NCBI GenBank assembly: GCA_036009625.1 | Contig: DASYLJ010000096.1 | Coordinates: 14,297-78,296 of the forward strand | Reading direction: 5' to 3' | DNA: 64,000 nucleotides | Origin: Candidatus Binatia bacterium | Lineage (GTDB): Bacteria; Desulfobacterota; Binatia; DP-6 | The notes under the pieces: model-generated | What the model saw: the letters and a program-made list of their open reading frames with translations, nothing else | The model's database searches: none | Told to the model about the DNA's origin: nothing | Shown here: positions 13,522 through 18,028 of the stretch, in pieces | Layout: each line of letters starts with the position of its first letter | Position numbering within the stretch: position 1 is the stretch's first letter | Made by a program: the position numbers and the translations under genes

Positions 13522-13590
13522 GGAGTCCCCAAAGTGCCTTCCCTCGCCCGGGCATCCGGGTTAGCGTCCCCGGCCGTGGGTAATTCGACC

Positions 13591-15090
13591 ATGACGACGG
13601 AACACGTCGACGTGCTCATCGTCGGCGCCGGTATCTCCGGTGTGGGGGCCGCGGTCCACCTGCACACGAGGGTCCCCGGCTGCAGCTACGCCATCCTCGA
13701 AGGTCGCCCGTCGATGGGCGGAACGTGGGACCTCTTCCGCTACCCCGGCATCCGCTCCGACAGCGACATGCACACGCTGGGCTACTCCTTCAAACCGTGG
13801 CGCCATGCGAAGGCCATCGCCGACGGCCCCTCGATCCTCGACTACGTGAAGGAGACCGCGGCCGAGTACGGCGTGAACGACCACATCCGCTACGGGCACC
13901 GTGCCACGACCGCCGCCTGGTCGAGCGACGACGCCACCTGGACCGTCGAGGCGGTGCGCAGCGACAGCGGTGAGACCGCCCGCTTCACGTGCAACGTCCT
14001 GCTCATGTGCGCCGGCTACTACAGCTACAAGCAGGGCTTCACGCCGGAGTTCGAGGGTCGCGAACGGTTCACGGGTCGGGTCATCCATCCGCAGCAGTGG
14101 CCGGAGGACCTCGACTACCGCGGCAAGCGGGTGGTGGTGATCGGCTCCGGCGCGACGGCGATGACGCTCATCCCGGCGATGGCGAAGGATGCCGCGCACG
14201 TCGTCATGCTGCAGCGATCGCCCACCTACGTGCTCTCGCAGCCGGCGCGTGACGTGATCGCGAACGCGCTGCGTGCCGTGCTTCCCGCGCACCGCGCCTA
14301 CGCCATCACGCGGTGGAAGAACGTCGTGATGCAGCAGTTCTTCTACGGTCGCTCGCGCACGCACCCCGGTCAGGTGAAGAAGAAGCTCCTGCAGATGGTG
14401 CAGAAGGAGCTCGGTCCCGACTACGACGTCGCGACGCACTTCACGCCGCGCTACGACCCGTGGGACCAGCGCCTCTGCCTCGTCCCCGACAGCGACCTCT
14501 TCAAGGCCATCCGGTCGGGCAAGGCGTCCGTCGTCACCGACCAGATCGAGCGCTTCACCGAGACGGGCATCCGGCTCACGTCCGGCGCGACGCTCGACGC
14601 CGACATCATCGTCACGGCCACCGGCCTGAACCTCGTCGTGCTCGGCGAGATGCAGTTCACGGTCGACGGCGCGCCGGTCGATTTCTCGAAGACGTGGACC
14701 TACAAGGGCATGATGTACTCCGATGTGCCGAACCTGGTCTGCACGTTCGGCTACATCAACGCGTCGTGGACGCTGCGCGCGGACCTCACGTCGGAATGGG
14801 TGTGCCGCGTCCTCCAGCACATGGCGGCGACGGGCACGCGTCGCGTGACGCCGCGTCTGCGCGAGAGCGACGCCGACATGCCGGCCCGTCCCTGGATCGA
14901 TCAGTTCACGTCCGGCTACATGCAGCGCATGATGCATCGCTTCCCGAAGCAGGGTGACCGCGAGCCGTGGATCAACCCGCAGAGCTATCGGCGCGACAGG
15001 AAGATGATGCGCGAGAGCCCGATCGACGACGGCGTGCTGGTGTTCGACGACCCGTCGGCGAGCGCGCGCCGCGAACGCGCCGTCGGGTGA
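13591..15090 (+). CDS. ethA: FAD-containing Baeyer-Villiger monooxygenase, EthA-like
   Basis: MTTEHVDVLIVGAGISGVGAAVHL...SMGGTWDLFRYPGIRSDSDM... matches M. tuberculosis EthA nearly residue-for-residue across the N-terminal region as recalled, not verified by alignment. Second Rossmann VVVIGSGATA. 499 aa. Confidence 0.9.
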   Translation: MTTEHVDVLIVGAGISGVGAAVHLHTRVPGCSYAILEGRPSMGGTWDLFRYPGIRSDSDMHTLGYSFKPWRHAKAIADGPSILDYVKETAAEYGVNDHIRYGHRATTAAWSSDDATWTVEAVRSDSGETARFTCNVLLMCAGYYSYKQGFTPEFEGRERFTGRVIHPQQWPEDLDYRGKRVVVIGSGATAMTLIPAMAKDAAHVVMLQRSPTYVLSQPARDVIANALRAVLPAHRAYAITRWKNVVMQQFFYGRSRTHPGQVKKKLLQMVQKELGPDYDVATHFTPRYDPWDQRLCLVPDSDLFKAIRSGKASVVTDQIERFTETGIRLTSGATLDADIIVTATGLNLVVLGEMQFTVDGAPVDFSKTWTYKGMMYSDVPNLVCTFGYINASWTLRADLTSEWVCRVLQHMAATGTRRVTPRLRESDADMPARPWIDQFTSGYMQRMMHRFPKQGDREPWINPQSYRRDRKMMRESPIDDGVLVFDDPSASARRERAVG

Positions 15091-16368
15091 TCAGGCGCGC
15101 AGCGTTGCCAGGCAACGCTGCGCCCGCGCCACCAGCAGCGCCGTCAATCGATCGACGACGGCGTGGGACAGACCATCGACGCCGGCACGGCGTGCGACGT
15201 CCGTCGCCGCATCGGGAAGCGCCGTCGCCAGGCGCTGCGCCCGGGCGAGCGTCGCATCGGCGTCGAGGTGCAGCTCGGTCGCCAGCTTCACCCAGTGCCG
15301 GCGCGTGATGTTGCGCAGCCGGTACTCGCCGCCGAGCTTCATCGCCAGCTTCATCCGCTCGGGGTCGAGGCTCGGGTACGGCAGGGCGCTGGCGAGATCG
15401 TACAGGGGCGCCAGGCGCGCTCGCCCACCGTCGCCGATCAGGATGGAGTAGTTCTTGGCGTGCGCGTCCGTCCCCGCGACGAGCCAGTTGAAGGCCAGCG
15501 CGTCGACGAAGGTGTCGACGTCGGCGTCGCGCGCCCGCGAGTGCTCGCGCAGCAGATCCGTGATCGTCCGAGCGCCTGGACCGCCCTCGCTCTCGTACTT
15601 CGTGCCCGGCGTCAGCCCCAGCGCCTGGCAGACGTCCTCCTGGTGGACGCGCACGAGGGTCGCGCCGACGCGCACCCGATCGTAGCGCTCGACGACGATG
15701 GCCAGCTCGTCGCCGAAGTGCATGACCCGCGACGTGGCCGTCGGCAGACCGAGCCTGCGGGCGAGCTCGAGGCTGCAATGCTCGTTCTCGATGTGACCGT
15801 CGAGCTCTCCCGACGGTGGCTTCAGGATGTGCGTCGTCGGGCGTCGACCCGAGGGGATGCCCCAGCGTCCGCTCTCGAAGACGAGCGCCGTCTTCGGCTG
15901 CGCACCGGCCAGGCTGAACTGTCCGGCGTCGTCGACCCGGCGCCACGCGCTCTGATCGCCGCGGAGGTCGCGCAGCCGTTCGGCGACGGCAGCGTCGTCG
16001 AGCCAGGCCACCGTTCCCGGTCCGTCGCGCCGTACGACGTCCAGGCGATCGGGCCGGGTGAACTGGACGGCGCCGGCGCAGTCCTCGCCGACGTGCGCGA
16101 TGAGGCCGAAGACGTTGCGTGCCGAGACACGGAAGCGTCGCGCCCAGCGATCGAGGATGTTGGCGTTGTCGGGCAGCAGCCCCCACAGGTAGGCGTCGAC
16201 GACGGCGTGCCCGTGCTCGGCGGCGGCGAGCGGCATGGAGAGCGACAGCGGATAGGCGTCGGCCTGCGAGCGCCAGCCGTCCTCGTAGACGAAGGACAGG
16301 CGACCGCGGCGACGGTGGACCGTGCCGATGACGGCGCCGTCCAGCAGGGCGATCAGGTCGTCACTCAC
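15091..16368 (-). CDS. hipA: Type II toxin HipA-family serine/threonine kinase
   Basis: GTG start overlapping hipB stop (GTGA). N-terminal VSDDLIALLDGAVIGTV... HipA_N. Kinase core with DAHAKNYS catalytic motif. 425 aa. Confidence 0.85.
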   Translation of the reverse strand: MSDDLIALLDGAVIGTVHRRRGRLSFVYEDGWRSQADAYPLSLSMPLAAAEHGHAVVDAYLWGLLPDNANILDRWARRFRVSARNVFGLIAHVGEDCAGAVQFTRPDRLDVVRRDGPGTVAWLDDAAVAERLRDLRGDQSAWRRVDDAGQFSLAGAQPKTALVFESGRWGIPSGRRPTTHILKPPSGELDGHIENEHCSLELARRLGLPTATSRVMHFGDELAIVVERYDRVRVGATLVRVHQEDVCQALGLTPGTKYESEGGPGARTITDLLREHSRARDADVDTFVDALAFNWLVAGTDAHAKNYSILIGDGGRARLAPLYDLASALPYPSLDPERMKLAMKLGGEYRLRNITRRHWVKLATELHLDADATLARAQRLATALPDAATDVARRAGVDGLSHAVVDRLTALLVARAQRCLATLRA

Positions 16369-16655
16369 GATCGGGGTCTCCGGGCGGCGTCGACGATCGC
16401 ATCGAGATCGACCGCTGGCCGGCCGGGCGTGCGCGGGGTGGCGGTCTCGTCGGCGACGGTGAGCGTCACGCCGAGCGCCTGCAAGGTTCGAAGCACGAGG
16501 CCGATTCCTGCGCGCGGCTTGCCCTTCTCGATCTCGACGATCCACTGCCGGCTCACCCCGACGTTCCTGGCGAGCGTGACCTGATCCAGATTCTGACGTC
16601 GGCGGTGATCGCGGATGATGGCACCGAGGTCGGTGGGCGTGTTGATGGGCGGCAT
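16365..16655 (-). CDS. hipB: HipB-like XRE-family HTH antitoxin
   Basis: MPPINTPTDLGAIIRDHRRRQNLDQVTLARNVGVSRQWIVEIEKGK is a Cro/C1-type HTH. 96 aa. Directly upstream of and overlapping hipA. Confidence 0.8.
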   Translation of the reverse strand: MPPINTPTDLGAIIRDHRRRQNLDQVTLARNVGVSRQWIVEIEKGKPRAGIGLVLRTLQALGVTLTVADETATPRTPGRPAVDLDAIVDAARRPRS

Positions 16656-16768
16656 GGACCCTCCCGTGGATGTCGTCGATCGGCGACATATTAGCATGTC
16701 TCCGATCGATGACATAGAGTCGCCGATCGGGGACATTTCGACATGTCGCCGATCGGCGACACGGTGAT
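16656..16768. promoter_or_regulatory. Array of four tandem 20-bp palindromic boxes (consensus ATGTCnCCGATCGGnGACAT), putative HipB operators / hipBA promoter
   Basis: Seen directly: ATGTCGTCGATCGGCGACAT, ATGTCTCCGATCGATGACAT, GTCGCCGATCGGGGACAT, ATGTCGCCGATCGGCGACAC at about 24-26 bp spacing between hipB start and the upstream Hsp70-like gene stop. Confidence 0.55.
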
Positions 16769-18028
16769 TCAGCCCGCGGCGCGCAGCGCCAGACCCTTCG
16801 CCACCGTCGTCAGCTCGTCGCCACCACGCAGATTGGCGCGCGCGAAGCGCTCGGCGAAGAGCCTGCGGACGGCCGGGACGAAGGCGGTGCCGCCGGTCAG
16901 GAAGACCGTCGCGACCTCCGCCGGCGGGACATTCGCCGTCGCGAAGAGGCGATCGACGCAGCCGGCGATGGCGTCAACGACCGGGGCGATCCACGCCTCC
17001 ATCTCGATGCGCGTGACGTTGGAGCCGAGCGCGATCGGCGGGGCGTCGAAGCGGAACGCGGCGTGCGTCTCGGTCGACAGCGTGCGCTTGGTGCCTTCGA
17101 TGTCGCCGTGCAGCCGGAACCCGAGGTCGTCGTCGACCAGGTGCATCAGCGCGTCGATCTTCTCCGGTTCGAGCGACTCGTGACGCAGCGTGCGCAGCGT
17201 CTCGAGCGTGTCGCGGGACTTGAGGAACGAGAGCTGATCCCAGCGCTCGACGCGCTCGTAGATCCAGCCCGGCATCGCCAGCTCGTTACCGAACGGCGTG
17301 CGACGCAGGGAGCCTGCCCCGAGCCCGGGCGCGGCGAGGTGACGGATCAAACGGGCATCGAAGGCGTCACCGGCGAGCGCCACGCCGTCGACGCCGAGAA
17401 TCGTGCTGCCGTTCGGACCGAGGCGCACCAGCGAGAAGTCGCTGGTGCCACCACCGAAGTCGCCGATCAGGACCAGCTCCTCGTGATCGAGACGCTGCTG
17501 GTACTGCGTCGCCGCGGCAAGCGGCTCGAGCGCGAACACGACCTCCTCGAAGCCCGCCTGCTGGACGGCGGTGCGGAGCCGCTGCTCGGCGAAGGCGTCG
17601 TCCTCCGGCGTGCGCGCCCCCGAGAAGTGCACGGGCCGACCGACGACCACCGCATGGCCCGGATCGCCCAGCTGTTCGATGGCGGCGCGCCGCAGCGCGC
17701 GCAGGAAGAGCGCGATCAGGTCCTCGAGCCGATACTGCACGCCGAAGAGGTTCGTCGTCGTGAAGTTCCGGCTCGCGAGGTGCGCCTTGATCGACTGGAT
17801 CAGCCGCCCGCGCCCGCCCGTCTCCAGCCACTCCCGAATCGCCGCCGGCCCCGCCGACACCCGCGGCGGCAACCCACTCTCCCCCGGCGCCTCGGGATCG
17901 ATGTAGAGAATCGACCGAAACGTCGCCGTCTGCCCATCGCCCTCCGCGAACGTGGCGAGCCGCGCAGTACCGTTGGGAGCGACGGCAGCAATCGCGCTGT
18001 TGGTGGTACCGAAGTCGAGCCCAAGCAC
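16769..18028 (-). CDS. Hsp70-family (actin-like ATPase) protein, nucleotide-binding domain only
   Basis: GTG start. MLGLDFGTTNSAIA phosphate-1 motif, later IGDFGGGTSDFSLV phosphate-2. Only 419 aa, so no full substrate-binding domain. Confidence 0.8.
   Translation of the reverse strand: MLGLDFGTTNSAIAAVAPNGTARLATFAEGDGQTATFRSILYIDPEAPGESGLPPRVSAGPAAIREWLETGGRGRLIQSIKAHLASRNFTTTNLFGVQYRLEDLIALFLRALRRAAIEQLGDPGHAVVVGRPVHFSGARTPEDDAFAEQRLRTAVQQAGFEEVVFALEPLAAATQYQQRLDHEELVLIGDFGGGTSDFSLVRLGPNGSTILGVDGVALAGDAFDARLIRHLAAPGLGAGSLRRTPFGNELAMPGWIYERVERWDQLSFLKSRDTLETLRTLRHESLEPEKIDALMHLVDDDLGFRLHGDIEGTKRTLSTETHAAFRFDAPPIALGSNVTRIEMEAWIAPVVDAIAGCVDRLFATANVPPAEVATVFLTGGTAFVPAVRRLFAERFARANLRGGDELTTVAKGLALRAAG

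Follow-up and report, generated by a model that had tools for sequence, protein, structure and literature searches.

The 113-bp intergenic gap upstream of hipB in this window (the whole stretch of DNA that was analysed, 64 kb in length) is almost wholly occupied by four 20-bp palindromic boxes, which match ATGTCnCCGATCGGnGACAT and lie upstream of a minus-strand hipB-hipA gene pair. The sequence comparisons presented here make it likely, with a probability of roughly 0.85, that these palindromes are operators of the HipB protein encoded immediately downstream, which would use them to autorepress hipBA. An operator-like role had been proposed in a preliminary description of this DNA; in its favour are the conservation of the boxes at hipB homologues (down to 30–40% identity, and across phyla), their overlap with a predicted promoter, the co-variation of the HipB recognition helix with the half-sites, and the absence of any sign of a dispersed repeat in the 64 kb or among the genome matches listed. 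The boxes, with mismatches counted against the consensus of the preliminary description, are as follows.

16670–16689, minus strand: box 1 (B1), promoter-proximal, ATGTCGTCGATCGGCGACAT, one mismatch; on the hipB strand ATGTCGCCGATCGACGACAT, which shares its first two bases with the end of the −10 element and spans the predicted transcription start.
16696–16715, minus strand: box 2 (B2), ATGTCTCCGATCGATGACAT, one mismatch; on the hipB strand ATGTCATCGATCGGAGACAT, which starts with the six bases of the −35 candidate ATGTCA and whose final T opens the TGn extension of the −10.
16717–16736, minus strand: box 3 (B3), GAGTCGCCGATCGGGGACAT, two mismatches; on the hipB strand ATGTCCCCGATCGGCGACTC, with a degenerate GACTC end (compare GACTT, usual in the upstream boxes of the family).
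16743–16762, minus strand: box 4 (B4), distal, ATGTCGCCGATCGGCGACAC, one mismatch; on the hipB strand GTGTCGCCGATCGGCGACAT, 6 nt beyond the stop codon of the upstream gene (16769–16771).

The four boxes exist as originally quoted, and when ATGTCNCCGATCGGNGACAT is searched on both strands with up to three mismatches they are the sole matches in the 64 kb. One hundred dinucleotide-preserving shuffles gave a mean of 0.06 matches with a maximum of 1, and none of the 100 reached four; the G+C content of the window is about 70% throughout. A looser, family-level box criterion finds just scattered, threshold-level single sites elsewhere in the window. The start-to-start spacing (which equals the centre-to-centre spacing) is 26/21/26 bp, with edge gaps of 6/1/6 bp, and the uniform spacing of about 25 bp given earlier is therefore incorrect. 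The array consists of a 47-bp two-box unit present twice, with 79% identity between the copies, and the whole array also forms a large inverted repeat. It adjoins hipB, as had been stated, but does not end at the hipB start: the ATG is at 16655 rather than 16656, and box 1 ends 14 nt upstream of it, with the sequence GGGAGG in between. The short open reading frames beginning MSPIGD or MSSIGD, which had been put down to the repetition, are by-products of the palindromes, because ATGTCGCCGATCGGCGAC reads M-S-P-I-G-D on either strand. The start of HipB according to the gene callers and to all homologues is MPPINTP or MxIRTP, and not MSPIGD or MSSIGD.

The genes surrounding the array are:

16365–16655, minus strand: hipB, a 96-residue Y4mF-type HTH-XRE antitoxin (MPPINTPTDLG...).
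15091–16368, minus strand: hipA, a full-length Ser/Thr kinase toxin of 425 residues, with a GTG start.
16769–18028, minus strand: an Hsp70/YegD-like gene, co-directional and upstream of the boxes, given as context.

The preliminary description named the downstream genes as hipBA, and the domain, structural and active-site evidence agrees: an HTH-XRE antitoxin and a full-length hipA kinase lie together in one operon, as a genuine hipBA pair. HipB matches the HTH_31 and HTH_3 domains. It passes the NCBIfam model TIGR03070 (Y4mF/couple_hipB, type II toxin-antitoxin Y4mF family antitoxin) at the borderline, with 71.7 bits against a cut-off of 71.65, and fails the E. coli HipB equivalog NF007271, with 25.5 bits against a cut-off of 79; its plasmid homologues carry the RefSeq annotation Y4mF family antitoxin. 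An AlphaFold2 model of HipB, built with 40 homologues, has a mean pLDDT of 85.9 and consists of helices at residues 7–20, 25–32, 36–43 and 51–60, followed by a separate C-terminal helix at 84–91. The recognition helix is formed by residues 36–43 (RQWIVEIE). In a Foldseek search of the PDB every one of the best 18 matches of the model is a HipB chain (from E. coli, S. oneidensis, L. pneumophila and the HipBST systems), with an rmsd of 1.0–3.9 Å, mostly 1.0–1.5 Å, over approximately 66–73 aligned columns. The predicted fold is thus a four-helix XRE domain that superposes on the solved HipB structures.

Both Couple_hipA and HipA_C are found as domains in HipA, whose alignment with the E. coli protein has E = 9e-52. 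The equivalents of S150, D309 and D332 are conserved, as Ser150 in the P-loop SLAGAQPKTAL, the catalytic D309 in TDAHAKNYS, and D332 in PLYDLAS. The TGA stop of hipB and the GTG start of hipA overlap as GTGA (16365–16368), which suggests translational coupling. NCBI lists the identical HipB protein under a 'Candidatus Binatia bacterium' MAG, and the same locus, with an identical promoter, is present in three other assemblies.

The C-terminus of HipB shows a further conserved element. The homologue alignment and the AlphaFold2 model together define a conserved C-terminal helix, VDLDAIVDAARRPR. All 40 aligned homologues end in the motif VD[IL]DxI[IV]xAARRP[RK] (window positions 16368–16415, minus strand), which coincides with the predicted separate helix 84–91, beyond a low-confidence linker. 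By analogy with S. oneidensis HipB, the C-terminus of which is sequestered by HipA (PMC4150777), this motif is probably a HipA-binding tail.

The gene context has features of its own. A terminator scan of the region found no terminator-like site between the Hsp70/YegD-like gene and the boxes, and any read-through from this gene into hipBA would have to cross the array. L200, the locus of the relative with 88% identity in HipB, has the same Hsp70/YegD-like neighbour; more distant loci do not. At the other end of the operon, the hipA stop abuts the stop of a convergent flavin-monooxygenase-like gene (13534–15090, plus strand) at 15090–15091, leaving no intergenic room for a terminator on either strand.

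A candidate promoter is embedded in the two boxes nearest to hipB, and comprises the following elements.

16688–16696, minus strand: extended −10 TGcTAATAT (hexamer 16693–16688), read from the sequence, in the register of the family consensus TGnTAcaaT.
16710–16715, minus strand: −35 candidate ATGTCA, matching TTGACA at 4 of 6 positions, with a 16-nt spacer (the family equivalent would be TTGTCg, with a 17-nt spacer).
16660–16665, minus strand: Shine-Dalgarno sequence GGGAGG, preceding the start codon of hipB.

On the hipB strand the order of these elements is ...ATGTCATCGATCGGAGACAT GC TAAT ATGTCGCCGATCGACGACAT CCAC GGGAGG GTCC ATG. The putative −35 would lie inside box 2 and the putative −10 would overlap box 1. 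A transcription start placed approximately 7 nt past the −10 would fall within box 1, giving a leader of about 25 nt that includes GGGAGG. Promoter prediction across the array, which had been suggested as a check, gives a divided result: a scan of the region for the strict sigma-70 consensus returned no promoter, as the −35 did not satisfy it, while the ATGTCA–16 nt–TGcTAATAT candidate is in the register of the family. Since the generic scan gave none, the assignment rests on the extended −10 and on conservation in the family. Sixty homologous promoters aligned on boxes 2 and 1 give the consensus ...TTGTCgcCGaTCGCtGACTTTG.TAcaaTGTCgtCGtaCGCTgACAT..., in which a TTGTCg −35 forms the start of box 2 and is followed, after a 17-nt spacer, by an extended −10, TGnTAcaaT, which continues into box 1. 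The promoter of the window has the same register, with a spacer shorter by 1 nt. Several palindromes thus overlap the core promoter elements, with four boxes in the array here and the same arrangement in the 60 aligned promoters. At two loci with HipB of 65–67% identity (L209, approximately 1060–1086; L211, approximately 1177–1203) the annotated hipB ATG overlaps the end of box 1 (GACATG), so that the leader would be very short or lacking and would have no Shine-Dalgarno sequence.

The boxes are conserved well beyond the closest relatives of this locus. HipB has 108 detectable homologues, of 43–88% identity, mostly from soil and peat metagenomes; the loci compared were 80 metagenome loci found by HipB alignment, together with the loci of the closest relatives and plasmid copies. 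A family box was defined by TGT, CG, CG and ACA at fixed positions, with partial symmetry. By this definition 71 of 79 non-identical upstream regions of HipB homologues (30–100% identity) contain three or four boxes, and control windows of equal length from the same loci (n = 1144) contain a mean of 0.03 and never more than one. Consecutive boxes in the 79 regions are spaced by 26 bp (92 cases) or 27 bp (68 cases), and a spacing of 52 bp corresponds to a degenerate middle box. Of the 72 loci whose sequence extends far enough downstream, 71 have hipA after hipB. In the box matrix T2, G3, T4, C8, G9, C12, G13, A17 and C18 are invariant and C5/G16 is mostly conserved; positions 6, 7, 10, 11, 14 and 15 vary freely. 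A role for GATC/Dam methylation at the CGATCG core was considered and rejected: GATC is not conserved, because the family consensus at the core is CGnnCG, with CGTTCG, CGAACG and CGTACG all common.

The relative with the 88% identical HipB (L200) has all four boxes and keeps the 26/21/26 layout, with five within-box substitutions relative to the window, solely at positions 6, 7 and 15. A further locus, with a HipB of 67% identity (L208), also has four boxes at 26/21/26. As both relatives keep the same layout, the short central spacing is a conserved trait of the sub-clade formed by the window, L200 and L208, and not an accident. Other relatives of 63–67% identity have three boxes at spacings of 26–27 bp, actinobacterial relatives have a spacing of 29/29, and one distant locus has 39/39. 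In all, the boxes accompany hipB in Binatia, soil-metagenome lineages, Alphaproteobacteria and Actinomycetota, including one plasmid-borne copy from Bradyrhizobium, in which the ATGTC...GACAT boxes are the same as those of the window. On Bradyrhizobium guangxiense plasmid p53363 (L205, 1880–2276) four ATGTC...GACAT boxes lie upstream of a Y4mF-family antitoxin gene that is not followed by hipA; in its place the opposite strand has genes annotated as hypothetical, and the antitoxin gene looks like an orphan antitoxin or repressor.

The half-sites of the boxes vary together with the recognition helix of HipB. Where HipB has the sequence SRQW, about 98% of the half-sites carry C at position 5 (TGTC). 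In the SRLWL clade (8 loci) the half-site is TGTAAG, with A5 in 42 of 48 half-sites, A6 in 47 of 48 and G7 in 44 of 48. At the two SREW loci roughly half of the half-sites carry G5 (TGTG beside TGTC) and all 16 carry G6; the single SRKWL locus has TGTAAC. The pair 5/16 changes jointly in both half-sites (z = 6), as expected for a symmetric dimer. The varying residue, Q37, is the second residue of predicted helix 3, at its N-terminal end, and in an ungapped profile match (offset 8) it aligns with Gln29 in the recognition helix of the phage 434 repressor. In the structures of the 434 repressor Gln29 is a base-contacting residue. The co-variation of helix and half-site, seen at the level of sequence, is supportive of the operator reading and not conclusive; it represents approximately three independent lineage events, and phylogenetic inertia may for that reason contribute to the pattern.

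The metagenome loci with SRLWL in place of SRQWI in helix 3 (L020–L024, L028, L035, L038 and L042) carry three TGTAAGCGnTCGCTTACA boxes at 27/27 bp, instead of TGTCgcCG... boxes. To judge by these sequences, the sub-clade appears to be a clean case of repressor-operator co-evolution.

The arrangement suggests a mechanism of control. HipB dimers, probably as HipA2HipB2 complexes, would bind each 20-bp box through the helix-turn-helix, with helix 3 (R36-Q37-W38...) reading the outer TGTC/GACA half-sites. Since the putative −35 is part of box 2, and the predicted −10 and transcription start are overlapped by box 1, occupied boxes would exclude RNA polymerase, and so autorepress hipBA. The further contribution of boxes 3 and 4 would be cooperativity and a greater repressor load; they may, in addition, stop read-through coming from the upstream gene. 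We infer HipB binding, the position of the transcription start, cooperativity between boxes and co-repression by HipA from the sequence and its parallels. The gap of 1 bp between boxes 2 and 3 (21-bp spacing) may leave little room if two HipA molecules are attached to every HipB dimer; consequently, the four boxes may not be occupied alike. A phasing of 26–27 bp corresponds to approximately 2.5 helical turns, and neighbouring dimers would sit on opposite faces of the DNA. A more speculative proposal, which we think rather unlikely, is that the near-constant 26–27-bp phasing of three to four operators imposes a HipA-HipB-DNA assembly unlike that on E. coli O1–O4, that the 5-bp contraction to 26/21/26 re-phased the array into two back-to-back pairs and altered cooperativity or the threshold of toxin release, and that the change of Q37 to L, E or K tracking that of C to A or G is a simple, transferable recognition code.

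The boxes could instead be bound by some other regulator encoded elsewhere, the adjacency to hipBA being incidental or reflecting control of hipBA by a host factor. The CGnnCG core, which also occurs in different palindromes upstream of more distant Y4mF genes, could be taken to point this way. However, the boxes travel with hipB across phyla and onto a plasmid, the half-site co-varies with the HipB recognition helix, and no other HTH gene is consistently adjacent at the compared loci, so that such a regulator seems improbable. A role of the palindromes as nucleic-acid hairpins, either as a terminator or attenuator of the Hsp70-like gene or as an element of mRNA stability or processing, is in our view highly improbable. 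Each box could fold into a GC-rich stem of 8–9 bp, and the array directly follows the stop of the upstream gene, where no other terminator was found; yet there is no T-tract and no terminator-like site in the region, and Rfam at a permissive E-value returned sub-threshold matches only (miRNA and Streptomyces sRNA models, 20–23 bits against cut-offs of 50–100). Complementarity at the variable mirror positions (6/15, 7/14 and 10/11) is seen in 32–46% of boxes, close to the shuffled expectation, which indicates that pairing is not selected. The promoter is moreover predicted within the array, so that boxes 2–4 would lie outside the hipBA transcript and box 1 would be partly transcribed, and the boxes persist at homologous loci where the upstream neighbour differs.

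The least probable of the explanations is that the boxes are a dispersed palindromic repeat of the REP or MITE type, or a functionless local tandem duplication. The array is indeed a 47-bp unit duplicated once, and isolated exact boxes occur in many unrelated genomes. A scan for ATGTCNNCGATCGNNGACAT in one genome per species (185,579 species, 596 Gb) found at least 119 loci bearing an exact single box, where chance alone would give about 140 (16 specified bases in 596 Gb), i.e. single boxes occur at around chance level. Among the matches listed, 113 loci lack any HipB-like ORF within 400 nt (according to tblastn and a HipB profile), and the loci away from hipB are mostly unclustered single boxes, seven of them with a weak second match close by. 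Clusters of three or more boxes occur at five loci among the matches listed, each of them next to hipB and hipA; Promicromonospora soli and Bradyrhizobium sp. 190 are among the hosts, and the HipB proteins at the five loci are 30–63% identical to that of the window. One two-box locus among the matches listed, cut off by the end of its contig, also adjoins hipB and hipA. The preliminary description held that frequent occurrence of the motif as a generic repeat unrelated to hipB would speak against an operator role; in the window, which holds no further copy, and among the matches listed from the 185,579 genomes, clusters are found only at hipBA. Nor does such a repeat agree with the position-specific conservation of the boxes (TGT, CG, CG and ACA fixed; positions 6, 7, 10, 11, 14 and 15 free), which is seen where HipB is merely 30–60% identical. 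The reading of the palindromes as HipB operators is preferred on these grounds.

One locus of the genome scan carries boxes in a different setting. At L195 (approximately 2750–2800) two good boxes, 29 bp apart, lie directly 3′ of a LuxR-type gene, the same neighbour as at the actinobacterial hipBA loci L102 and L172, and no hipB or hipA is detectable beside them. They may be orphan operators left by the loss of hipBA.

Operators of this general design are known from other hipBA systems. In E. coli, dimers of HipB, an HTH-XRE protein, bind four TATCCN8GGATA operators cooperatively, bending the DNA by about 70°, and HipA serves as co-repressor (PMC3920265); the gaps between the E. coli operators are 10/21/10 bp (PMC4150777). 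The array described here resembles O1–O4 of E. coli K-12 in having four palindromes in the hipBA promoter region, in a symmetric pair-gap-pair layout, and the HipB model has the same fold as E. coli HipB (TM 0.85–0.87, normalised to the target). The preliminary description equated both count and layout with those of E. coli: the count of four holds, while the layout agrees only loosely, as the boxes here are longer and packed with gaps of 6/1/6 bp instead of 10/21/10 bp (PMC4150777). It was right that the consensus differs, the boxes being ATGTCnCCGATCGGnGACAT, with TGTCnnCGnnCGnnGACA within each 20-bp box, as opposed to TATCCN8GGATA, which they do not fit. The C-terminal helix motif conserved in the HipB of the window is lacking in the E. 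coli HipB model.

In S. oneidensis MR-1 the hipBA operators are four GTGTAN6TACAC sites, with even gaps of 34 bp, the fourth of which lies inside the hipB open reading frame (PMC4150777). The number of palindromic sites is the same as here, and Shewanella HipB is a close structural match to the HipB model (4pu7, rmsd 1.0 Å). In contrast, all four boxes of the window are upstream of the gene and nearly abut one another, the half-site differs, and the inner spacer is N10 compared with N6 in Shewanella. The hipBA1 and hipBA2 promoters of C. crescentus each have three conserved palindromic sites, predicted as operators by sequence inspection (PMC8545095; PMC7029023, Fig. S8); this is the same level of evidence as that for the boxes described here, and likewise concerns hipBA promoters of a non-enteric host.

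A parallel within the subfamily is Y4mF/Y4mE of Sinorhizobium fredii pNGR234a, the founder of TIGR03070, which shares with the window the type of antitoxin, the hipB-hipA overlap and the CGnnCG core. Upstream of y4mF on pNGR234a (L204, 1860–1985) are three palindromes of the TTTCCCGAGCGGGAAA type, and the copy on the M. extorquens AM1 megaplasmid (L206, 1875–1975) has TACCGnnCGGTA-type sites with a CGnnCG centre. These more distant Y4mF-type hipB genes thus have three or four palindromes with divergent arms around the same CGnnCG centre. As the arms differ (TTTCCCGAGCGGGAAA in pNGR234a y4mF compared with ATGTCgCCGATCGGcGACAT here), specificity has diverged within the Y4mF subfamily. A literature search found no paper giving the box consensus of the window, the box text matching just unrelated primer strings; nor did a search combining y4mF with HipB and operator bring up any paper using that term.

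The comparison extends the multi-operator design of HipB to the Y4mF-type subfamily, found widely among soil bacteria (Binatia, unassigned soil and peat metagenome lineages, Bradyrhizobium and actinomycetes). The subfamily gains a consensus, (a/t)TGTCnnCGnnCGnnGACA(t), a conserved layout embedded in the promoter, and a candidate amino-acid-to-base rule. The most useful products are the family consensus, the 26–27-bp phasing (26/21/26 in the sub-clade) and the candidate recognition rule; these would aid the annotation of hipBA promoters in metagenomes, and leave the understanding of toxin-antitoxin autoregulation unchanged. The design is the known one of HipB autoregulation, as in E. coli and Shewanella, here with an undescribed consensus and a tighter spacing.
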